Positions 1-59,018 of a stretch of DNA of 64,000 bases are shown here, piece after piece. Both the position numbers and the translations under genes were made by a program. The DNA is from a phage. Each line of letters begins with the position of its first letter. Position 1 is the first letter of the stretch. A model generated the notes under the pieces. That model saw only the letters and a list, made by a program, of their open reading frames with translations. It was not told the origin of the DNA and ran no database searches. Where the stretch lies: assembly GCA_004257845.1 (NCBI GenBank), contig GCA_004257845.1_4800.1, one strand, 5' to 3'.

Positions 1-798
1 CGCGGCAGTCCGATAATCCCATCAAACGCTATTGCGATGGCCTACCGTCGTGAGATGAAAGGTCTTTGCTATGCGATGATTGATGACTATCAGGCAGGAA
101 TTTCAGAGTGGCTTGAAAAGAAGCAGGTGCAGAAGTTCTTTGCGCAAGACTCTGCTGATTCAACATTCCAAACTCTTATGAAACGTCTGCAGCTGAAATG
201 GGCAAAGGCGTTTGCTCGTGTTGGGTCGAAGATTGCCGCTGATTTTATCAAGTCGGTTGAAAAGGGCGCTACTTCTGCTACATTTGCAAGTCTTAAGTCC
301 GCAGGCATAGAAGCGCCAAAGGCCACATATAACAAATTCGTTGAGAACACTCTTAGAACAAGCGAGACGTTCAACACGACTCTAGTGACTAAGGTTGGCG
401 AGGATATTCACAACAGAGTGTACGAAGCAGTCATGCTTTCGCTGACTTCGCCCGACCCAGCCCAGCAAGGCACGTCAGGCATTCAGGCGGCGCTGCGAAA
501 CGTAAAACACTTCTCTGCAAAGAGAGTCGACTTAATCGCTAAAGACCAGACAAGCAAATTGTATTGCGTTCTAAGCGATGAAAGGATGCGACAGAATGGA
601 GTTGAAGAATTTGAATGGTCGCACTCAGGAGCAGGGAAGGAGCCGCGAATCTCTCATGAACATGTCGACGGAATGAGATTCAAACTTGATGACAAGCGTC
701 TATGGGAAGTGGGCGGAGAGTTGAAGTTCAAAAAGGGTGACATCGGCCCTCCTGGATGGGCGATACGCTGCAAGTGCAGAAAAATACCAATCATTTGA
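1..798 (+). CDS. head morphogenesis protein, Mu F / SPP1 gp7-like C-terminal domain (5' end outside window)
   Basis: Frame is open from position 1 (no stop before first ATG at 37), so the gene probably starts upstream; C-terminal motif ISHEHVDGMRF...PPGWAIRCKCR resembles the conserved H..DG...PP.H.NCRC signature of Mu F-like head morphogenesis domains. Confidence 0.6.
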   Translation, partial: RGSPIIPSNAIAMAYRREMKGLCYAMIDDYQAGISEWLEKKQVQKFFAQDSADSTFQTLMKRLQLKWAKAFARVGSKIAADFIKSVEKGATSATFASLKSAGIEAPKATYNKFVENTLRTSETFNTTLVTKVGEDIHNRVYEAVMLSLTSPDPAQQGTSGIQAALRNVKHFSAKRVDLIAKDQTSKLYCVLSDERMRQNGVEEFEWSHSGAGKEPRISHEHVDGMRFKLDDKRLWEVGGELKFKKGDIGPPGWAIRCKCRKIPII

Positions 799-805
799 GG
801 TCATT

Positions 806-1726
806 ATGACGATACCAATCAGCACGTTTCCTCTATCTGGACAAACGCCAGTATTACCTGCTGTATATGCGAACGGTTTGGCGATTGTTTCAGAATTTAC
901 ATCCGATAAAAATTTGATTGTTCCATTGAGTCCGCCATTGGCATCTGGATACAATTCAGTCGGACAATTCTTTATGATTGGCAATGATGGCGATTCGACC
1001 AGCAAGCCTAATCTGACATTGTCTGTACCTAAGATGGACATCACAGATGTTCAAACTGGCTTGACTGCATCAACAATCACCATTGCTTTTGGAGAAGCGG
1101 TGATTATAGGAATGGAGTCTGGAGGGTCCAAGAATGCTGTCGCCGTTAAGGTAGTCAAATCCAGCGACAACCAATACACGTTACCAGCTGCGACGGCTTC
1201 CGTTCTCGGCGGCGTCAAAATAGGAAGCGGAATAAGCGTCGCAGGTGACGGTACAATTAGCGTTACTCAATACTCATTGCCGATTGCGTCAGCATCTACT
1301 TTAGGCGGCGTAAAGGTCGGTACAACTCTATCAATTGATGGTTCCGGTGTGCTTAACGCAGCGGAAAGCACCGTCCAGAATGCCATGAACAGTGTTAGCA
1401 ATCCTCCAACCACTTTGGTTAATCTGGCAACCTTAAACCTTCCTGCAGGAAAGTGGCTTGTGACGGCAAGTCAGTTGACTGTCGCGACAGCAGGAATTCA
1501 AGCGAATACCGGAATTACAGCCAAATTGTCAACAAGCGATTCAGATATTACGGATGATGCATTTACGATGTCAGCTGGCATTCGGGCTGCAGGTCGTTTC
1601 GGCGGCAATATTCCAACAAAGATAATTACTCTTGCCGCGCCTGGCAACGTGTATCTAAACTATCAATGCACAGATGCGTTGACATCTACCGTTTACGGAC
1701 AGATCACCGCAATTAAGCTGAACTAA
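806..1726 (+). CDS. virion structural protein with internal tandem repeats (possible head fibre/decoration)
   Basis: ATG at 806 preceded by GAGG; internal repeat YTLPAATASVLGGVKIGSGISVAGDGTISV / YSLPIASASTLGGVKVGTTLSIDGSGVLN; position between head morphogenesis and capsid genes. Confidence 0.4.
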   Translation: MTIPISTFPLSGQTPVLPAVYANGLAIVSEFTSDKNLIVPLSPPLASGYNSVGQFFMIGNDGDSTSKPNLTLSVPKMDITDVQTGLTASTITIAFGEAVIIGMESGGSKNAVAVKVVKSSDNQYTLPAATASVLGGVKIGSGISVAGDGTISVTQYSLPIASASTLGGVKVGTTLSIDGSGVLNAAESTVQNAMNSVSNPPTTLVNLATLNLPAGKWLVTASQLTVATAGIQANTGITAKLSTSDSDITDDAFTMSAGIRAAGRFGGNIPTKIITLAAPGNVYLNYQCTDALTSTVYGQITAIKLN

Positions 1727-1736
1727 AGAGGAAGTT

Positions 1737-1874
1737 ATGCAAAAGATTATTCAGTCACGTTATGTTAAAGTGCGAAATATTAATTGCAACTCTTTGCTTT
1801 CTTGGAAATGGGCTGTTTACGACTCGATGTTAATTGGCGTTTTAGTTGCAGGAGTGCTATTTAATATTCACTGA
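1737..1874 (+). CDS. small hydrophobic protein (45 aa), hypothetical
   Basis: Not in ORF track (below 60 aa); ATG at 1737 preceded by AAAGAGGAAG; C-terminal hydrophobic segment SMLIGVLVAGVLF; stop TGA at 1872-1874. Confidence 0.3.
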   Translation: MQKIIQSRYVKVRNINCNSLLSWKWAVYDSMLIGVLVAGVLFNIH

Positions 1875-1904
1875 ATTCATCGGCAAAGGATTGCCGCGAG
1901 TTTT

Positions 1905-2190
1905 ATACGTATAATGACGTATCATACGTATCAAGTAAGTTATTGTTTTCAAAAGAATCTTACGGATGATACGGATGATACGCGTTGCCGCCGTACTATA
2001 TAGGAATTCAAATAAATTAATTTAAAATTATATATCTAATTTAATTTTATTTTTTTATAAACTCTTATATATGAAAAGTATCCGTATCATCCGTATCATC
2101 CGTAGCACACCAGTGATAGCGCGGCTTATACACCGATACGGATAAAAATACGCCTCATTTTATCCGTATCATCCGTATCACACTAATAAA
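1905..2190. repeat. iteron-like region 1: tandem 9-mers (ACGGATGAT) in direct and inverted orientation flanking an AT-rich core
   Basis: TACGGATGATACGGATGATACGCGT at 1961-1985; inverted copies GTATCCGTATCATCCGTATCATCCGTAG at 2078-2105 and TATCCGTATCATCCGTATCA at 2161-2180; AT-rich stretch about 2000-2070; box CGTATAATGACGTA at 1908-1921. Confidence 0.7.
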
Positions 2191-2237
2191 GGCGCGGCTA
2201 TATCGGTTGTTATACATATTCAAACCATAATTATTGT

Positions 2238-2266
2238 TTGCCTAAGTTTTTTTCATTAGATATAAT
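2238..2266 (+). promoter_or_regulatory. sigma70-like promoter (TTGCCT-17 nt-TATAAT) upstream of scaffold/capsid genes
   Basis: -35 TTGCCT 2238-2243, 17-nt spacer, -10 TATAAT 2261-2266, about 24 nt before start codon at 2290. Confidence 0.5.
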
Positions 2267-2289
2267 ACACAATACTTATTTGAGGGTGG

Positions 2290-3708
2290 ATGCGAATGCA
2301 AACGGCACGCGAAATTGACAAAAATGGATTCTTGACGATTATGGGTTGTCCAATTTCGTCATTTGGCATTTTTGATTATTCTGCTGGTCAAGTTGGTCTT
2401 GATGGTGATCCGAATCGCATCGTAAAAGTCTATCGCCCTGAGTCAGCGGTGAAAGACCCCGAAGCGATAGATTCATTCAAAAATATCCCTTTCATCGACA
2501 ATCACGAAATGCTTTCTGGATTTGAAGGTGATGAGGATAACACAGCACCCGAAGAGTATGGAGTTGATGGCGTTCTGACTGGCAATGTTTATTATGACAA
2601 GCCATGGATGCGCGGCGACCTTAAAGTGTTTAGCCGTCGTCTGAAGAAGGCCATTGATTCTGGAAAGGTTGACTTGTCTTTGGGCTATGACTGTGAATTC
2701 ATCATACAGTCTGGAGAGTTTGACGGGCAGCCGTATGAAGTGGTGCAGACAACTCTTCGCGGCAACCACATTGCTCTCGTGGACGTTGGTCGAGTACCAG
2801 GTGCACGGGTGCTGGATGGTCGTTGCTTTGACCATCTTTGTTTGACGACTGTAACACCATCCAACGAGGATTTAGACATGCCAAAACCGTTAAAAGGTAA
2901 AGCGCGTGATAATGCTGTTGAACAGCTGAAATCACTGATCCCTGCGCTCGAACAATTTCTGAATGAAGAGAGCACTGAAGCTGCTCATCAGGACGAAGTT
3001 GAAGTGAAAGCAGAAGAGAAGGACTCAACCGAAAATCGTGAAGAAGTAATGGTTGATCCAGAAGTCAAGGCAGAAGCAGAAGAAACCCCAGAAGGTGAAG
3101 AGAAGTTTGAAGTTGAAACTGAATCTAACGCTGGCGGCGAACTTCCGCAATTGATCAGCCAAATCGAAGCACTTATTGCAAAACTGAAAGGTGGCGCGGT
3201 AGGTGATGAAGAAGAAGTTGAAGCCGAAGTCAAAGACGAAGAAGTTGAAGTCAAGGCTGAAGATGTATCACCTTGCGACAAAGCTGAAGATGTGGTTAGC
3301 GGCCTGCAAAACAGCAACGTAAAGGGGGCTTCGGTCGAAAAAGATGACAAACCGACAAAAGCGGCGAAAGCGTCGCCAGGTCCAGCAAAAGGGGAACACT
3401 CAATGGCATCTGATTCAGCAGTTGCTGCTTTCTACGCTGATTCTGCTCGTAAGAATAGCCTCTACCAGCGCCTGTCTAAAGTTGTTGGTGCCTTTGATCA
3501 TGCAACTATGGACTCCAAGTCCGTAGCGAAATATGGCGCTAAAAAGTTAGGCTTGAAGTGCGTTGATGGCGCTGAGTTTGACGTGGTGGATAACTATCTG
3601 CGCGGCGTTGAACACGGTCAAAAACAGCGTGTAGTCGCAAAACAAAAGGCCGCTGCGGATTCTGCAGCAACTGACGAAGCATTTGAAGCTTGGTTGAAAG
3701 GGGAATAA
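2290..3708 (+). CDS. prohead scaffold / prohead protease-like protein
   Basis: Immediately upstream of capsid gene; long acidic low-complexity central region (EEVEVKAEEKD..., EEVEAEVKDEEVEVKAED) typical of scaffolding proteins; RBS GAGGGTGG before ATG. Confidence 0.45.
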   Translation: MRMQTAREIDKNGFLTIMGCPISSFGIFDYSAGQVGLDGDPNRIVKVYRPESAVKDPEAIDSFKNIPFIDNHEMLSGFEGDEDNTAPEEYGVDGVLTGNVYYDKPWMRGDLKVFSRRLKKAIDSGKVDLSLGYDCEFIIQSGEFDGQPYEVVQTTLRGNHIALVDVGRVPGARVLDGRCFDHLCLTTVTPSNEDLDMPKPLKGKARDNAVEQLKSLIPALEQFLNEESTEAAHQDEVEVKAEEKDSTENREEVMVDPEVKAEAEETPEGEEKFEVETESNAGGELPQLISQIEALIAKLKGGAVGDEEEVEAEVKDEEVEVKAEDVSPCDKAEDVVSGLQNSNVKGASVEKDDKPTKAAKASPGPAKGEHSMASDSAVAAFYADSARKNSLYQRLSKVVGAFDHATMDSKSVAKYGAKKLGLKCVDGAEFDVVDNYLRGVEHGQKQRVVAKQKAAADSAATDEAFEAWLKGE

Positions 3709-3710
3709 AC

Positions 3711-4328
3711 ATGACTTTCCAAACTAGTGTAGGCCGTCAATATACAACTGGCTTTCCTGGCGACATCGTTCGCGACGGCCCACAGCGTGGGAAGCCAGGT
3801 CGAATCGTTAGCGCCAACGAAGGTGCAAACGTAAACGCCATCAGCCGTGTGTTTGGTTTTAAAGCTGACGTATCTTTAATGGGCACTGGCCAAACCAAAA
3901 CCTTGGGCGCGCAGGACTTTGAAGTTGAACTGGGCGGCACCAATTACTATGGCATCCTTGGCAACAGCAAGCGTTACGCTCTGTATGGCAACTCTACTGG
4001 GCCTTTGGGTGCCAGCATGGTTCTGCCTCAATATAGCGAAGGCGAGTTTTACGATATGTGCACGGGCCTCGTAGTTGAAGTATTCAACCCTGGCACCAGT
4101 CCGCAGACGCTGAACTACGGCGACCTGCTCGCTTATGTACCTAAAGGCATTTCCAGCGGCAACAACCCGAACAACTTGCCTATCGGTGCAATTATCGCCT
4201 ATACTGGCTCACTGCCAACTGGCATGGCTGCCATTCCAGGCGGTATCGTGATTGACCCGACTGCTATTGCCCTTTCCGGCCCAAGCGTCCAGTCTTCCAC
4301 TTATACCATTGTACAATTGACTCGTTAA
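3711..4328 (+). CDS. capsid-associated structural protein (possible decoration protein)
   Basis: ATG at 3711 preceded by AAAGGGGA; Gly/Thr/Ser-rich; sits between scaffold-like and major capsid genes. Confidence 0.4.
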   Translation: MTFQTSVGRQYTTGFPGDIVRDGPQRGKPGRIVSANEGANVNAISRVFGFKADVSLMGTGQTKTLGAQDFEVELGGTNYYGILGNSKRYALYGNSTGPLGASMVLPQYSEGEFYDMCTGLVVEVFNPGTSPQTLNYGDLLAYVPKGISSGNNPNNLPIGAIIAYTGSLPTGMAAIPGGIVIDPTAIALSGPSVQSSTYTIVQLTR

Positions 4329-4342
4329 TAGGCAGGTGAATA

Positions 4343-5482
4343 ATGACTCGCATTAGCCAAACACACTCTCGCCTCCCAGCGAGCAAGGTGCGCCCTTTTG
4401 ATATGCAATCCGTTACCGACGCGGCTGTTTCCCAGCTTGCTCGTATCGGTATTGTGTTTGATTCCGCGATTGTGCGTGATCAGATTGAGCACTTAAACCG
4501 TGCAGGCGCTTTCCGCGTAGGTGATGCCGCGTTTACTGCGCCGCAGACCACTCCGTCAATCCCGACCCCGTTGCAGTTCCTGCAGCAGTGGTTGCCTGGC
4601 TTCGTCAAAATCATGACCGCCGCTCGTAAAATCGACGAGCTGGTTGGTATTGATACCGTTGGTCAGTGGGAAGATGCAGAAATCGTTCAGGGTATCGTTG
4701 AACCAGCTGGCACCGCAGTTGAATATGGTGATTTCACCTCTATTCCTCTGGCAAGCTGGAACGTAAACTTTGAACGTCGTTCTATCGTTCGTGGCGAAAT
4801 GGGCATGGCAGTTGGTATGCTGGAAGAAGGCCGCGCGTCTGCGATGCGTCTGAACTCCGCAGAAACCAAGCGCCAGCAGGCTGCTGTATCTCTGGAAATC
4901 ATGCGTAACGCAATCGGCTTCTATGGCTGGTACAACGGGAACAACCGTACATTCGGCTTCCTGAATGATCCAAATCTGCCAGCGGCGATGACTTCCAACA
5001 CCACTTCCGGCTGGGCTACTGCGACCTTCCAACAGGTGACTGCAGACATCCGTTTGATGGTTCGTCAAATTCGTGTGAACTCTCAGGACCAGATTGATCC
5101 AGAGAAGGTTGACATGACTCTGGCACTGCCGACCAACTCTATCGATTGGCTGTCCAACACCACTGACTTCGGTATTTCTGTACGTGACTGGATCACCCAG
5201 ACTTATCCGAAGATGAAGATCAAGTCTGCACCGGAACTCAACGGCGCACTTGGCAGCGACCCGACTTTCTTGAACGTGGCATACCTGTACGCTGATCACA
5301 TCGATTCCTCAATCGATGGTTCAAGCGATGATGGTTCCGTATTCAGTCAGCTGGTTCAGACCAAGTTCATGACTCTGGGCGTTGAAAAGCGTGCTAAGAG
5401 CTACGTCGAAGACTACGCAAACGCAACAGCAGGCGTTCTGCTCAAGCGTCCTTTCGCAGTCGTCCGTATGACTGGTATTTAA
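4343..5482 (+). CDS. major capsid protein (putative)
   Basis: 379-aa ORF following scaffold-like gene; RBS AGGTGAA before ATG; followed by GC-rich stem-loop; position and size typical of major capsid genes. Confidence 0.5.
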
Positions 5483-53986: not shown

Positions 53987-54003
53987 TAGTGATTAATGTT
54001 AAG

Positions 54004-54027
54004 AGGGCCGATTGGCCCTTTTTGTTT
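54004..54027 (+). terminator. rho-independent terminator ending the + strand early gene array
   Basis: Stem AGGGCC / GGCCCT with 4-nt loop followed by TTTTTGTTT. Confidence 0.65.
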
Positions 54028-54312
54028 GCCTGTGGAATGTGAGGCTTTATTATCGGATAAAGCGATTGATTTGTGTAAATCTATTAGAGGGTCGTGGGTA
54101 GTAAGGATTGTGACGTGAATTTTGTGTCTTGAATATGTGTGCGAATTTGGAAGAATATTGTACTGTGGTGCTGTGGGATTGGAGAGGGAATCACTAGGAA
54201 TTGGAGCGTGTACCGTGGTGTGTGGTCCTGTAGGCTGCGCCGTATATGGGATTGTCGCTTGAAACTAAAAAGGAGATATAGTTAGCTGGCTAACCTTACG
54301 CATAGAATTTAA

Positions 54313-54604
54313 GCGTATAATGACGTAAGATTTGGACCTATCCGTAGTTCACTCCACACACTTCTATGGTGCGCCGCGACTGGGTTCAGTGGTACATCTT
54401 ACGGATGATACGGATGATACGCGTCGCCGCTATACTTTATACAACTTTGAAAAAACAATTAACTCCATTTTGAATTAATTTAAATTAATTTTTTTCTACA
54501 TCCTCATACTTATACTAAACTTATATTTATACGTATTATCCGTAAGATATAAGTAAAAACAAAGACTTGCGGCAATACGGATGATACGTCATGATACGCT
54601 TCGA
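54313..54604. repeat. iteron-like region 2 (diverged paralog of region 1)
   Basis: GCGTATAATGACGTA at 54313-54327; TACGGATGATACGGATGATACGCGT at 54400-54424; AT-rich stretch about 54430-54530; inverted TATTATCCGTAAGAT at 54533-54547; ACGGATGATACGTCATGATACGC at 54578-54600. Confidence 0.7.
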
Positions 54605-54710
54605 CCAGCCAGCAGCGGCTAAGTCATTGATTTGCATAACAAGCGGCGAAAGGGATGGATTTCTTTTATACGTATCAAACAGTACACCACGCACCACGGT
54701 CCGCAATCCT

Positions 54711-56283
54711 ATTTGCACTATGATTTGTGTACGTTTATAGCCATAATGAACATCAATCTGCACTTGAATATAATGTCCATCCATTGTATAATTCACACTA
54801 TTAATTTGCACTATGGGATTTTGCACTATGAGTCAAGATTATGTAGCGATGCCTGAAGACTTTGAAGACCCGCGATTCGCAGAGCACAATCAGGCTTTAT
54901 TCGATGAGTTCATTGACCTTGTTATTCAGGGCCATGACATGCGCGCAGCTTTTGCACTAGTATTTGGAATGGAAGTTGCAACGGATAACTACACTGGCCA
55001 GCGAATCCTTTGCGCACAACGCAATCCGTACTACAAAATGCGCTTCAAAAAGCGTATGGAAGAGATGCCACTCAAGGATTTGTGGAGCGTAAAAGGTGCA
55101 ATTCACAATTTGGTCAAGCTTGTGCGTGATCCAGAAGTCGCGGCGTCAGCCAAGCTTAATGCTATTCGTGAACTGAATATCATCTACGGCATCACGATGA
55201 TTGATGAAAACGGCAATAGTAAAATGGGCCGTTCCATGGACGATTTCTACAAGGATTTTGGAGAGGCAGCCAAAGAAGGTGAGCAATTCTCCCGCCACTA
55301 GCCAATTTGCACTATAAAACGGCCCTAGAACACATTTTCTCCACTTCTAGGGCCATCGGTAATACGACGGGGAAGGTTACAACCGTAAACGCGTTAGAAA
55401 GTGTATTATTATAAGTCATCTTTTAGTCACTTTACGTAACAATTTACGACCTTCAACCGTCCAATCGAACGACTCCACCAGCAGATTTGCACTATAACCT
55501 AAGACGATGCGCCCTTTCTCGTTATCGACCCGCCAACAAGTCTCGAATAGCATTCGATTTGCACTATTAACTATTGCCGCAACTCGCGTAGGATAAGCGC
55601 AATTTGCACTATGGTCGTAAAGGGATAAGGTGCGACCACTTCCGATGGACAACGTAGCGATGAGAATGAGTGTATTCATAAGCCACCAATTTGCACTATG
55701 AAAAGCGACCCCGAAGGGCCGCCATTCGATTAGATAATCTGGAAGGTGTAGGACTTGTTGCCGAACTCGAAGTTTAAGCGTCCAGCTTCCTTAAGCTTCA
55801 TGCGGAAGCGAATGTGCTTGCTATCCGGTAAGCCCAGCGCGGCGAACGCTACGCGGACCGATTTGAACTCGCCTACACCCTCGACCATGACACCGTTACG
55901 GGTAAGACGCTTTTGCGCCACTTCCTTATTATCCCAACTTTTTGCAATACCTTCGCTATTCGAACGGCGATGGGATGGAGTTCCATTTTGCACTACGCAA
56001 TTTGCACTATCGTTTAAACCGCTCTTAACGAAGGCTTCATACTCTTCGTCGGTCATCGCGTCGAGTTCTTCCTGGGTCGGCTCGGACTTTTTAACGACCG
56101 CACGCGCCTTATGCGTTTTTACATCGTTGGGCACTTCCTCGCGCGACTTCGCGTCTGGGATGGGCGACTCGTTGGACGGCTCATCGAGCGCGTTTAAGGA
56201 CTCGATTAACGCTATTACGCGAGTCTCGGCGGTCCGGCGGTCCGCAAATTTTTTGATCGGCTTCGAACCGGAATTTGCATTAT
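54711..56283 (+). repeat. dispersed same-orientation array of 12-bp motif AATTTGCACTAT (at least 11 copies including variants)
   Basis: Copies at about 54711, 54803, 54819, 55304, 55485, 55557, 55601, 55688, 55985, 55999, 56272, all on the + strand; several lie antisense within minus-strand ORFs. Confidence 0.75.
54813..55301 (+). CDS. hypothetical protein
   Basis: ORF; start could be ATG 54813 or 54828 (no clear SD for either); followed by hairpin 55321-55354 (10-bp stem GGCCCTAGAA / TTCTAGGGCC). Confidence 0.4.
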   Translation: MGFCTMSQDYVAMPEDFEDPRFAEHNQALFDEFIDLVIQGHDMRAAFALVFGMEVATDNYTGQRILCAQRNPYYKMRFKKRMEEMPLKDLWSVKGAIHNLVKLVRDPEVAASAKLNAIRELNIIYGITMIDENGNSKMGRSMDDFYKDFGEAAKEGEQFSRH

Positions 56284-56356
56284 AAAATGCAACGAGGTCG
56301 GCGGTCTTAGTTGCGATAACGTCGCCGCTAGTCGAGAAACGATTTAAGCTAACCAT
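55730..56356 (-). CDS. hypothetical protein (CpG-rich island)
   Basis: 208-aa ORF with distinct codon usage; contains antisense motif copies encoding SANCVVQNG. Confidence 0.4.
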   Translation of the reverse strand: MVSLNRFSTSGDVIATKTADLVAFYNANSGSKPIKKFADRRTAETRVIALIESLNALDEPSNESPIPDAKSREEVPNDVKTHKARAVVKKSEPTQEELDAMTDEEYEAFVKSGLNDSANCVVQNGTPSHRRSNSEGIAKSWDNKEVAQKRLTRNGVMVEGVGEFKSVRVAFAALGLPDSKHIRFRMKLKEAGRLNFEFGNKSYTFQII

Positions 56357-56436
56357 AATGAACTCCTATTTGTTAGGGCGCTAGGCGCGAAAGAATTTTA
56401 TTAAAGCGCCGCGCACGACGCTCTAAAAATCCTCTC

Positions 56437-56721
56437 TTACGCTTCGACGAGGGAGAAGGTCTCAAATTCTTCTTCGCCCATAACGAGTAAGATGTTACCG
56501 ATTTCGACCGCTTCGAAGAAGTATCCGTTAACGTTTACTTCGAAGGCTTCGCGGTCCGATTCCGGTAACGCCGCGTAAAGTTTAAAAGCCTCGGCGACCG
56601 TAACCCCACCCGCCTCGATAGTTTGGTCTACGTTCGCGGCGTAGACTTCGGATAAAATTTGTTTTACGCCGTAGTTCTCGACGATAGCGTTACGGATAGA
56701 AGAAACGTTAAGAATAGCCAT
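56437..56721 (-). CDS. hypothetical small protein, paralog A
   Basis: 94 aa; similar to product of 57355-57645 (SIRNAIVE/AIRSARVE, VYxxNVDxTIE, NGxxxxxxEIG). Confidence 0.45.
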   Translation of the reverse strand: MAILNVSSIRNAIVENYGVKQILSEVYAANVDQTIEAGGVTVAEAFKLYAALPESDREAFEVNVNGYFFEAVEIGNILLVMGEEEFETFSLVEA

Positions 56722-56945
56722 TTTAAACTCCTAGTTGGGAGAGGCGTTAACGACCTATTCGTTAACTCATCCCGTCCCGATATGAGTACATTATAATATA
56801 GTGTAGAAAAAAGTAAAGCACTTTTTCGATAAAGATGAGATAAATTATTTTATCTTTTTTCTTTACTTCTTCGTACACTCGCGTATACTTGTTTATATCG
56901 AGACGGGCGATGACCCTTTCTTTTACTACCATCGGGAGTTTTATT

Positions 56946-57248
56946 ATGGCTACTTTAATTTCTTCTCTTCTTACTTACGACGAAGACCGCTTAACCGTCG
57001 CTTCTCTTCTTAAAGCCGTTAACGCAGAATTAGACGGGACCGCTATTAAGGTCCGCGCGTTCGCCTTCGTCGGCCTTTCCTTCGACGATATGAAGTACGT
57101 CGAACGTAGCGCCATCCGCTTCGCGAAGACCGACGACGAAGCCGTTACCCTTATCGAAACCGTAACGCCGCGCGGCGAAGCGCTAATTATCGTCGAGTAT
57201 CTCGATATAGAAGGCTATAAAGCTTATAAACATTTTATCGCAAAATAA
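56946..57248 (+). CDS. hypothetical small protein
   Basis: ATG 56946 preceded by GGGAG; CpG-rich codon usage. Confidence 0.4.
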   Translation: MATLISSLLTYDEDRLTVASLLKAVNAELDGTAIKVRAFAFVGLSFDDMKYVERSAIRFAKTDDEAVTLIETVTPRGEALIIVEYLDIEGYKAYKHFIAK

Positions 57249-57354
57249 CGAAAAGTGCTTTACTTCTTCGTACACTAAGACTATAATGTTTTATATCGAG
57301 AGGGGATGAGGTAGCGAATAGGTCGCTACCCGCCCGACCAACTAGGAGATTATT

Positions 57355-57645
57355 ATGATTACTTTAGCCGCTATCCGTTCCGCTCGCGTCGAGACTTCCG
57401 AAAACTCTAACGTATTTGGCGAAACCTTAGAGAGCGTTTATCTCTCTAACGTAGACGCAACTATCGAATCTATTTATGAGCCGATCAACTTCCTCGACCT
57501 TTACAAGTATCGCGATGAGGACATCGTATCTTGCCGCGTAACCATCAACGGCTTCGTCTATACGATTACCGAAATCGGCGGCGAATATCTCGCGGTCCCG
57601 CAACTCGGCGGCGAAGTAACTTTCTTTAAAATCGTAAGCCTGTAA
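57355..57645 (+). CDS. hypothetical small protein, paralog B
   Basis: 96 aa; similar to product of 56437-56721 but on the opposite strand; RBS AGGAGA. Confidence 0.45.
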   Translation: MITLAAIRSARVETSENSNVFGETLESVYLSNVDATIESIYEPINFLDLYKYRDEDIVSCRVTINGFVYTITEIGGEYLAVPQLGGEVTFFKIVSL

Positions 57646-57656
57646 GGAGAAGGAAG

Positions 57657-57866
57657 ATGACTAATATGAATAATTCTCTTAACGCGCGCGCCCATCGTAC
57701 CGCCGTAATCGATATGTTCCGCGAGCTTAAGGAATTATGCGATAATATGAACGCGATGTTATCCATCGGCGGCTGGGGATACGAAGAAGAGGTTAAATAC
57801 GCGGTTATGCGTCGCCGTCGCGATAACGTCCTTGGGCAAATTAAACGCGCCGGATTATTCCTTTAA
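57657..57866 (+). CDS. hypothetical small basic protein
   Basis: ORF preceded by GGAGAAGGAAG. Confidence 0.4.
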   Translation: MTNMNNSLNARAHRTAVIDMFRELKELCDNMNAMLSIGGWGYEEEVKYAVMRRRRDNVLGQIKRAGLFL

Positions 57867-57892
57867 TTATAATTACCAACAGTTACTAATAG

Positions 57893-57914
57893 GCCGCGCT
57901 TAGTCGCGGCTTTT
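57893..57914 (+). terminator. rho-independent terminator
   Basis: GCCGCG (57893-57898), loop CTTAGT, CGCGGC (57905-57910), then TTTTCTT. Confidence 0.6.
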
Positions 57915-58036
57915 CTTCGCCCCTATCTCGATGCGCTTCTCCGCGAAAACTCCTTTATCCTTCCCTTCGTCGTCGCATAATCTTCGTCGAGATGCTCCTT
58001 AGTTCGTATAACGGGTATTACGTTAAATGGAGAACA

Positions 58037-58110
58037 TCGCGTAAGTCCTTGTTTTATATAGACACCTATATCGGACCGTTAGGGCGGGTCGCGTAAGTCG
58101 TTGTTTTATA
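58037..58110 (+). repeat. 22-bp direct repeat pair TCGCGTAAGTC(C/G)TTGTTTTATA
   Basis: Copies at 58037-58058 and 58089-58110, one mismatch, in a non-coding CpG-rich stretch. Confidence 0.6.
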
Positions 58111-58386
58111 AAGGCGCAAAACTTTCCCTTCGTTCCGAACTAAAACGAGGAATATGCCGACCCTTCGTCCGAAAATAGTACGCATGCGAAATTACATGCA
58201 TCTCGAATAATTCCCACCGATATTATCCTACAAGCAATCATTCTCTTTCGAATCATTATGCTTCATATTATTATGCGTCGAATCATTCGCTTTCGAATTG
58301 TAACGCTGGAAACTGTAACGGCGATTGATTATTGCGTTCGTGTGGTTTTTAGGGCATGGGTCTTTTGGTGCGTTTTGGTACTTGAT

Positions 58387-58500
58387 GAAATTTGCAGTAC
58401 ACTAATCAAAATACGACACATTTGGTCCACTAACTTTTCAAAGAAAAAGTCCTGGACAGTACCGTACTATTTTGTACCCACAGGAAATTTGCAGTACACT
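58387..58500 (+). repeat. two exact 17-bp copies GAAATTTGCAGTACACT
   Basis: 58387-58403 and 58484-58500; share AATTTGCA core with the upstream motif array. Confidence 0.6.
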
Positions 58501-58571
58501 CCTGCGCGCCAGGCAAAATAAAGGGCCGCACTAAGCGACCCACGATTCACGGTTAAGGCAACATCCACCCA

Positions 58572-59018
58572 CTATTCACTCTTATGGGCATCACCAAAGC
58601 CATCCGCAATCTGGCTGATCAACGACTCAATGGACACAGTCTTACCAATTGATCGAGCGGTTATGGCGAGCATATTATCAATCAAACCGTGATTAACACA
58701 ACACTCTGGAGATTTAGAGTCATCTTCAGAACAACCAAAAAGCTGGTCGCGCAGACTTTCAAGAGAACGCTCAATATTTTCCAACTTCTCTTCTAAATCG
58801 GATTGGCGACGTAAAACCCATGTCAAGTCACGGTTGCCAACTTCCAATCCATCAGAATAGCAAGGTGGAGCGTCAATTTTGATACTGGAGCCAAAAGCGG
58901 TGCCGCTGCCTTTAGTATATGTGTGGCTCATAGAATCATTTTTATTTGACATATCATTACCTTTAATATTTGGGTGATTAACAATAACTATAATAAAGCC
59001 GCATAGCGCGGCATTCAA
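58572..59018 (-). CDS. hypothetical protein
   Basis: ORF; true start may be an internal Met. Confidence 0.35.
   Translation of the reverse strand: MNAALCGFIIVIVNHPNIKGNDMSNKNDSMSHTYTKGSGTAFGSSIKIDAPPCYSDGLEVGNRDLTWVLRRQSDLEEKLENIERSLESLRDQLFGCSEDDSKSPECCVNHGLIDNMLAITARSIGKTVSIESLISQIADGFGDAHKSE

Follow-up and report, generated by a model that had tools for sequence, protein, structure and literature searches.

Why would a phage carry two related small genes in inverted orientation around a third, unrelated one? This question is raised by a locus in a phage DNA stretch of 64,000 nucleotides (nt), hereafter the window (NCBI GenBank assembly GCA_004257845.1, contig GCA_004257845.1_4800.1), in which the homologous genes L and R diverge around a gene that we call C (Table 1). 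The initial annotation of this locus suggested that the arrangement could reflect a small self-contained system of paired binding proteins plus an effector. Our analyses point to a different explanation, which we consider probable: L, C and R would be modular early ORFan cassettes, each with a promoter of its own, carried in the terminal repeat of a virulent Wifcevirus myophage, with L an inverted, accessory and replaceable paralog of R and with a function that we infer from context.

The homology of L and R that had been claimed from the sequence is borne out by pairwise alignment. BLASTP aligns the two proteins with 28% identity over 81 amino acids (aa) at an E value of 6e-6 for a single comparison, and their Smith-Waterman score of 71 compares with 28 ± 5 for shuffled sequences (z scores of 7.8-8.4), a value reached by 0 of 2000 and 0 of 3000 shuffles and thus beyond chance. 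The motifs that had been singled out (IR.A.VE, VY..NVD.TIE, NG and EIG) correspond to the invariant columns of the family alignment, and the inverted orientation of L and R around the small, unrelated C was found with the same coordinates and strands. A profile of the L/R family (Wifcevirus gp005/gp007-like) matches L and R as well as three metagenomic proteins, with E values of 1e-19 to 1e-32, and a search of all six-frame open reading frames (ORFs) with it revealed no further member in the window. The 20-nt stretch that encodes NVD(A/Q)TIE is 90% identical between L and R.

C starts at an ATG that follows a GGGAG ribosome-binding site (RBS), the same start as in the annotation of the phage Mansfield. 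No similarity between C and L/R was detected by BLASTP, by a shuffle test (z of about -0.5), by profile-profile comparison (hhalign) or with a hidden Markov model (HMM), and the BLASTP, hhalign and HMM results rule out at the sequence level that C is a hidden L/R paralog. The ratio of non-synonymous to synonymous substitution rates is 0.06-0.14 for R among close orthologs and 0.25-0.33 for C, and L differs from its orthologs by four synonymous and 0-1 non-synonymous changes. By these sequence measures L, C and R are all real genes under purifying selection.

The 3-kb region around the trio is ~95% identical to that of Wifcevirus myophages of E. coli and Shigella (vB_EcoM_SP13, F13, ManiWeber_Bas99, Mansfield, ECML-117 and WFC), identifying the window as the DNA of a Wifcevirus myophage. 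In Mansfield, the stretch homologous to the trio falls within a direct terminal repeat predicted by PhageTerm at positions 1-3673, and phages WFC and WFH each have a terminal repeat of ~3.7 kb (PMC6563267). Mapped by alignment, the repeat corresponds roughly to window positions 54468-58370. By homology to Mansfield, WFC and WFH, the trio is therefore located inside a direct terminal repeat of ~3.7 kb, and records that hold both genome ends contain two copies of the trio region. The order of genes in the repeat is conserved: TerS-like (+), 87-aa (-), 208-aa (-), the position of L, which we term the slot (-), C (+), R (+), an optional 69-aa gene (+) and a terminator.

The inverted duplication reaches upstream of both the L and R ORFs, into the leader and the promoter, a point missed by the initial annotation. 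Two pairs of inverted arms are present, one of 65 nt (56719-56783 and 57293-57357; 78% complementary) and one of 27 nt (56799-56825 and 57251-57277; 89% complementary), and they contain a near-consensus sigma-70 promoter, a common initial transcribed sequence, an 8-bp hairpin and an RBS. The promoter is found a third time upstream of C, where the initial transcribed bases TTTATATCGAGACGG are again present but there is no hairpin, and the C leader has no stable fold. The 22-nt promoter motif (19-22 nt are common to the copies) occurs three times in the window, always within the same 500 bp, against an expectation of 0.02. A scan of IMG/VR with this motif returned multi-copy loci in Wifcevirus contigs only; the matches elsewhere were single and apparently due to chance. 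Because each gene has its own predicted copy of the promoter, L, C and R are to be read as separate transcription units and not as an operon. P_L and P_C stand back to back, and the palindrome in the spacer between them is kept in WFC, ECML-117 and F13; it is possibly a common operator of both early units or an UP-element region.

The non-coding arms of L and R are far better conserved than the ~30%-identical proteins. This is what would be expected if the DNA itself mattered, with the inverted promoter-leader repeats serving as a recombination or inversion substrate, as an origin or as a regulator-binding array and with the ORF similarity incidental; the indels bounded by these modules, and a duplication in F13 that ends in the R promoter-leader, would also fit such a role. 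However, the ORFs are under purifying selection, R has a confidently predicted fold (see below), and the textbook -35, -10 and RBS elements within the repeats suffice to explain the conservation of the arms. We therefore regard a DNA element of this kind as very improbable. An invertible segment was likewise rejected: the orientation of C relative to R is constant in every Wifcevirus locus examined, with no sign of flipping. In the duplication of the F13 record (L004, OP745617), located at 3440-3860, 303 bp that span the 3' two-thirds of C and the R promoter-leader are repeated in tandem; this is either a real recombination product formed between or near the repeated modules or an assembly artefact.

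The leader hairpins of L and R each consist of an 8-bp stem, GUUAACGA/UCGUUAAC in L and GGUAGCGA/UCGCUACC in R, closed by the loop AUAGG in the RNA fold, and the whole R leader folds with an energy of -19.7 kcal/mol (z = -2.0). The window and its relatives contain seven distinct variants of the stem, all of them paired at 100% of positions. When the leader of L is compared with that of R, two of the eight stem pairs are changed on both sides (U-A to G-C and A-U to G-C), and the L leaders of ECML-117 and F13 contain a G.U intermediate, which pairs on the sense RNA strand only. This covariation modestly favors a role at the RNA level over that of a sequence-specific operator. The hairpin is unlikely to be an intrinsic terminator, as no T-run follows the stem and it lies downstream of the start site. 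A search of Rfam gave no RNA family in 54000-59000.

Comparison of gene content among relatives bears on how the trio is organized. Every Wifcevirus record contains R, whose discrete alleles show about 95%, 79% and 67% identity, and every record also contains C (29 records by tblastn, with 74-93% aa identity). L is present in 12 of about 30 records, always with 98-100% aa identity. In 11 records the slot of L holds a 104-aa acidic gene (pI 4.07, WFC_00005 type) that is 99-100% conserved, its carriers including WFC, WFH, Bas98, Bas101, CWP003 and FEC19. Phages of the ECML-117 type have no gene in the slot; in these, the RBS of the 208-aa gene follows straight after the P_L leader. P_L is conserved upstream of L, upstream of the 104-aa alternative and, in ECML-117, directly upstream of the 208-aa gene. 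Alignment of the three slot states shows identical flanks, consisting of the promoter-leader through ATGGCTAT upstream and TAAGAGAGGATTTTTAG... downstream, around ORF bodies that cannot be aligned. Compared with WFC, the window shows a mosaic identity profile: the flanks are 97-100% identical, whereas the slot and the 3' two-thirds of R reach only 55-60%.

A very distant relationship between the 104-aa protein and L is possible. BLASTP aligns the two with an E value of 0.35; shuffle tests give z scores of 3.5-4.0 (p of about 0.002-0.008), which are helped by a common MAI start, and profile comparisons of the 104-aa protein with the L/R family were negative. L, R and the 104-aa protein are all acidic (pI 4.05-4.23), C mildly so. 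The modules also assort freely: among the relatives, any slot content can be combined with any R allele and with presence or absence of the 69-aa gene, and the alleles of C and R do not co-vary, the 84%-type C being found with both the 97% and the 67% R alleles. Variation in R is located mainly after residue 38 (57468-57645), immediately beyond the NVD(A/Q)TIE stretch, where the discrete 95%, 79% and 67% alleles diverge. The C allele of the window is unusual in that it shares 84% aa identity with most relatives and 93% with TH35 only, in flanking DNA that is 95-99% identical.

These data do not support the reading of L, C and R as one self-contained system in which two paralogous binders flank an effector. 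In favor of such a model, promoter, leader and ORF are arranged with inverted symmetry on the two sides of C. Yet more than half of the related genomes lack L, and in these C and R stay intact under purifying selection; its position is empty or occupied by a gene that cannot be aligned with it; the three genes appear to form three separate transcription units and assort independently; and no toxin-antitoxin family in Pfam or NCBIfam is matched. An optional, replaceable L and a separate transcription unit for each gene do not fit a self-contained three-gene system. The gene-content comparison largely refutes this model, which we consider extremely improbable.

Distant relatives raise a further possibility. 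Profile searches of 5.8 billion and 1.8 billion proteins, together with two word-indexed searches, identified only three L/R-family proteins beyond Wifcevirus (P0020, P0024 and P0025), of 103-108 aa. One R-like family member is carried by L005, a Wifcevirus-like 23-kb Logan contig (SRR23924999) for which the phage collection contained nothing similar at the nucleotide level. Its neighborhood is that of the window: TerS-like, 86-aa and 187-aa genes, a promoter with the same core (CTTTACTTCTTCGTACACT...TATACT), the R-like gene and a 125-aa gene. The 125-aa protein is a homolog of C, with an E value of 1e-6 over the N-terminus and a conserved C-terminal hairpin. In L007 an R-like gene is likewise followed by a C-like (125-aa) gene, in the order seen in L005. 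Searches of IMG/VR and of JGI/ENA metagenomes for more distant loci returned Wifcevirus-type loci and L007 only, and none of the distant loci of the R and C families contains an inverted second copy.

R-like and C-like genes are thus adjacent in Wifcevirus (C then R) and, with the order swapped, in two metagenomic lineages, L005/L006 and L007, of which L005 shows no nucleotide similarity to known phages. Since both genes are also present in every Wifcevirus record, the R- and C-family proteins might constitute a conserved two-protein module, a binder with its partner or an inhibitor with its modulator, to which L would add an extra or alternative R-like subunit that widens specificity. However, the whole neighborhood (TerS-like, 87-aa and 208-aa genes) is syntenic in L005, so that the adjacency may be simply inherited, and for this reason it does not by itself prove functional coupling. 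In Wifcevirus, moreover, each of the two genes has its own promoter and their alleles vary independently. We regard a two-protein module as unlikely.

Searches for a function gave few leads. L, C, R and the 104-aa protein match no family in Pfam, PHROG or NCBIfam, and PDB sequence searches with both family profiles yielded nothing useful. No toxin, antitoxin or defence family was matched by the trio in Pfam, NCBIfam or PHROGs; PADLOC was not searched. An AlphaFold2 model of R, calculated from 15 sequences, has a predicted local distance difference test score (pLDDT) of 90.4 and a predicted template modeling score (pTM) of 0.78, and shows a small N-terminal alpha/beta part followed by a C-terminal four-stranded beta-meander. 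Comparison of this model with solved structures, DNA mimics included, revealed no relative. In BFVD, the only matches beyond the family are borderline: A0A5B9NNY6 from Erwinia phage TropicalSun and A0A513QBN4 from Shigella phage MK-13 (Foldseek E values of 1.2e-3 and 0.08; TM scores of 0.56-0.64). Both proteins are similar in length to R, share 14-16% sequence identity with it, have no known function and are themselves predicted, not solved, structures. The Big_13 immunoglobulin-like domain was rejected as a lead: the profile matches do not extend beyond the V-x-V-N-G-x-x-Y hairpin and add up the scores of 5-11 repeats, Pfam gives no hit for L/R, and the R model contains helices and has a different topology. 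Our literature search found no transcriptomic or genetic work on the L, C and R genes of Wifcevirus.

The explanation that we favor, modular early ORFan cassettes, can be set out as follows. A composite module present three times would comprise an AT-rich upstream region, a sigma-70 promoter, a common initial transcribed sequence and an RBS with its ATG, to which the L and R modules add the leader hairpin. R would be the core gene, and L would have arisen through inverted duplication of the whole promoter-leader-ORF cassette followed by divergence. L would now sit in a promoter-proximal slot that holds L, the 104-aa acidic gene or nothing, the content being exchanged by recombination in the conserved flanks, that is, the leader and RBS upstream and the inter-cistronic sequence downstream. 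Host RNA polymerase would transcribe L, C and R right after DNA entry, and the hairpin may act at the RNA level, for example on translation or on the stability or processing of the transcript. As small acidic proteins, L and R may bind and neutralize host proteins, in host takeover or anti-defence, and L, R and the discrete R alleles may cover different or variant targets. Small size, acidity, probably very early expression, lineage restriction and discrete alleles are together the profile that we would associate with a host-takeover or anti-defence binder.

Several points weigh against this explanation. The likeness of the promoters and leaders is compatible with shared ancestry under strong constraint, with gene conversion or with a re-used mobile regulatory module, and does not discriminate between them. 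Early timing, transcription start sites and promoter strength were all deduced from consensus matches alone, and the putative function of L and R is drawn only from gene position, from protein size and charge, and from analogy. The acidity of both proteins is only moderate, and their fold is unlike that of known DNA mimics. The adjacency of R and C in three lineages could reflect a joint action that the cassettes do not require. The covariation of the hairpin amounts to about 2-3 evolutionary events, and its score is reached by 6 of 500 shuffles, which makes this control only moderately convincing. Finally, a palindromic DNA operator would also retain the symmetry of the stem.

Among known systems, the closest likeness is to the PeSL (promoter-early stem-loop) cassettes of T4-like phages. 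In these, AT-rich DNA is followed by a strong sigma-70-like early promoter, then by a stem-loop and finally by a Shine-Dalgarno sequence with its ATG; the cassettes stand upstream of ORFans and mediate indels and replacements (Arbiol et al. 2010, PMC2839356; Comeau et al. 2014, PMC4122927). The trio resembles these cassettes in that a repeated composite promoter/stem-loop/Shine-Dalgarno/start motif is located directly upstream of small ORFans and bounds insertions, deletions and replacements between close relatives. There are also clear differences. PeSL motifs occur in many copies across the hyperplastic regions of a T4-like genome, whereas this non-T4 myovirus has only three, which are confined to its terminal repeat and one of which is inverted. 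The PeSL stem-loop is a terminator or attenuator of upstream transcription; the hairpin described here is in the transcribed leader of two of the three copies and has no T-tract, and a terminator role is unlikely. For PeSLs, recombinants or mini-circles have been shown; exchange at the slot of L is proposed here from sequence comparison.

The genomic setting is reminiscent of the first-step-transfer (pre-early) region of T5 and the terminal-redundancy host-takeover module of SPO1, clusters of small genes, most of them ORFans, with strong host-polymerase promoters in a long direct terminal repeat that is present in two copies and enters the cell first. The trio likewise consists of small ORFans behind host-type promoters inside a long direct terminal repeat, but we found nothing that relates them in sequence or fold to a protein of T5 or SPO1. 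Ocr, ArdA and Arn are small acidic early phage proteins that mimic DNA and act against restriction. L and R are also small, acidic and presumably early, but their charge is much weaker (-8 to -12) and the R model, alpha/beta with a beta-meander, has neither the fold nor the charge pattern of a B-DNA mimic.

Table 1. Coordinates of the trio, its promoter-leader elements and neighboring features of the terminal repeat.
Feature	Position	Strand	Description
L	56437-56721	-	94 aa, acidic, isoelectric point (pI) 4.05, net charge -12; first gene of the putative leftward early unit
C	56946-57248	+	100 aa, pI 4.9; separate ORFan family
R	57355-57645	+	96 aa, acidic, pI 4.23, net charge -8; core member of the L/R family
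Promoter P_L	56790-56817	-	TTTACT, 16 nt, TATAAT; predicted by consensus scan
Promoter P_C	56862-56889	+	TTTACT, 16 nt, TATACT; predicted, third copy of the shared promoter
Promoter P_R	57259-57287	+	TTTACT, 17 nt, TATAAT; predicted
L leader hairpin	56746-56766	-	GTTAACGA-ATAGG-TCGTTAAC; 8-bp stem, 5-nt loop; about +18 to +38 from the putative start
R leader hairpin	57310-57330	+	GGTAGCGA-ATAGG-TCGCTACC
Palindrome	56839-56854		GATAAA-TTAT-TTTATC (GATAAATTATTTTATC); AT-rich spacer between back-to-back P_L and P_C
208-aa gene	55730-56356	-	Downstream in the leftward unit; PHROG 4730, function unknown
87-aa gene	55416-55679	-	Downstream in the leftward unit; ORF
69-aa gene	57657-57866	+	Optional, basic protein; last gene of the rightward unit; PHROG 10377, "transcriptional regulator"
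Probable intrinsic terminator	57893-57917	+	Of the rightward early unit; GCCGCG-CTTAGT-CGCGGC then TTTTCTT, read from the sequence

The 208-aa and 87-aa genes are kept in all relatives and in L005. The 69-aa gene, whose product contains no Pfam domain, is a further presence/absence cassette: the window, F13, ECML-117 and L088 carry it, whereas Mansfield, WFC and Bas101 do not. The probable terminator was marked at the equivalent place by the annotators of Mansfield and WFC; a simple scan of the window did not list it. Past this terminator, near the right end of the terminal repeat, a non-coding stretch contains short direct repeats at 58037-58113 and 58220-58307. One is TCGCGTAAGTC(C/G)TTGTTTTATA, whose two copies are separated by 52 bp, and the other is of the TTCGAATCATT type.

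The 11-mer ATTTGCACTAT (with at most one mismatch) forms an array in the left half of the repeat. Ten copies are present in the window against 1.7 expected, all at 54711-56283, in a region that surrounds the TerS-like gene and continues downstream of it. All ten are on the + strand, even though leftward genes predominate there. L005 contains nine copies against 0.5 expected, again all on the + strand, at 4210-5210 in the equivalent 1-kb neighborhood. An array thus conserved in position and orientation could provide binding sites for terminase or end processing, or a phage-specific promoter. For the TerS-like gene itself, two tandem TTTGCACTATG motifs (54804-54835) each provide an ATG in frame (54813 and 54828), of which the Mansfield annotation takes the second.

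What the trio may mean for Wifcevirus is best seen against the reported behavior of the genus. Wifcevirus phages are reported to replicate exceptionally fast and to resist nearly all tested defence systems, with no known protection mechanism (PMC11990801), and the genus is reported to resist nearly all tested restriction-modification systems without DNA modification. Early counter-defence genes, as yet unknown, are therefore expected in these genomes. In the most far-reaching interpretation, L and R would be an early effector family with a new fold; L, the discrete alleles of R and the 104-aa slot gene would each confer a specificity, for anti-defence or host takeover, that can be exchanged for the others; and C would be a conserved partner of R. 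We consider this quite improbable; if true, it could explain both the resistance to restriction and defence systems and the very fast takeover. In the explanation that we favor, the trio is an ordinary feature of virulent phages, small ORFan early genes behind repeated strong promoters that are duplicated and swapped as cassettes. Even so, its analysis defines an early control module of an understudied genus and documents PeSL-like cassette shuffling outside the T4-like phages. It also makes R, C, L and the 104-aa alternative candidates for the fast replication and defence resistance of Wifcevirus, and the BASEL phages supply presence/absence variants, as Bas99 and Bas100 carry L and Bas98 and Bas101 the 104-aa alternative.

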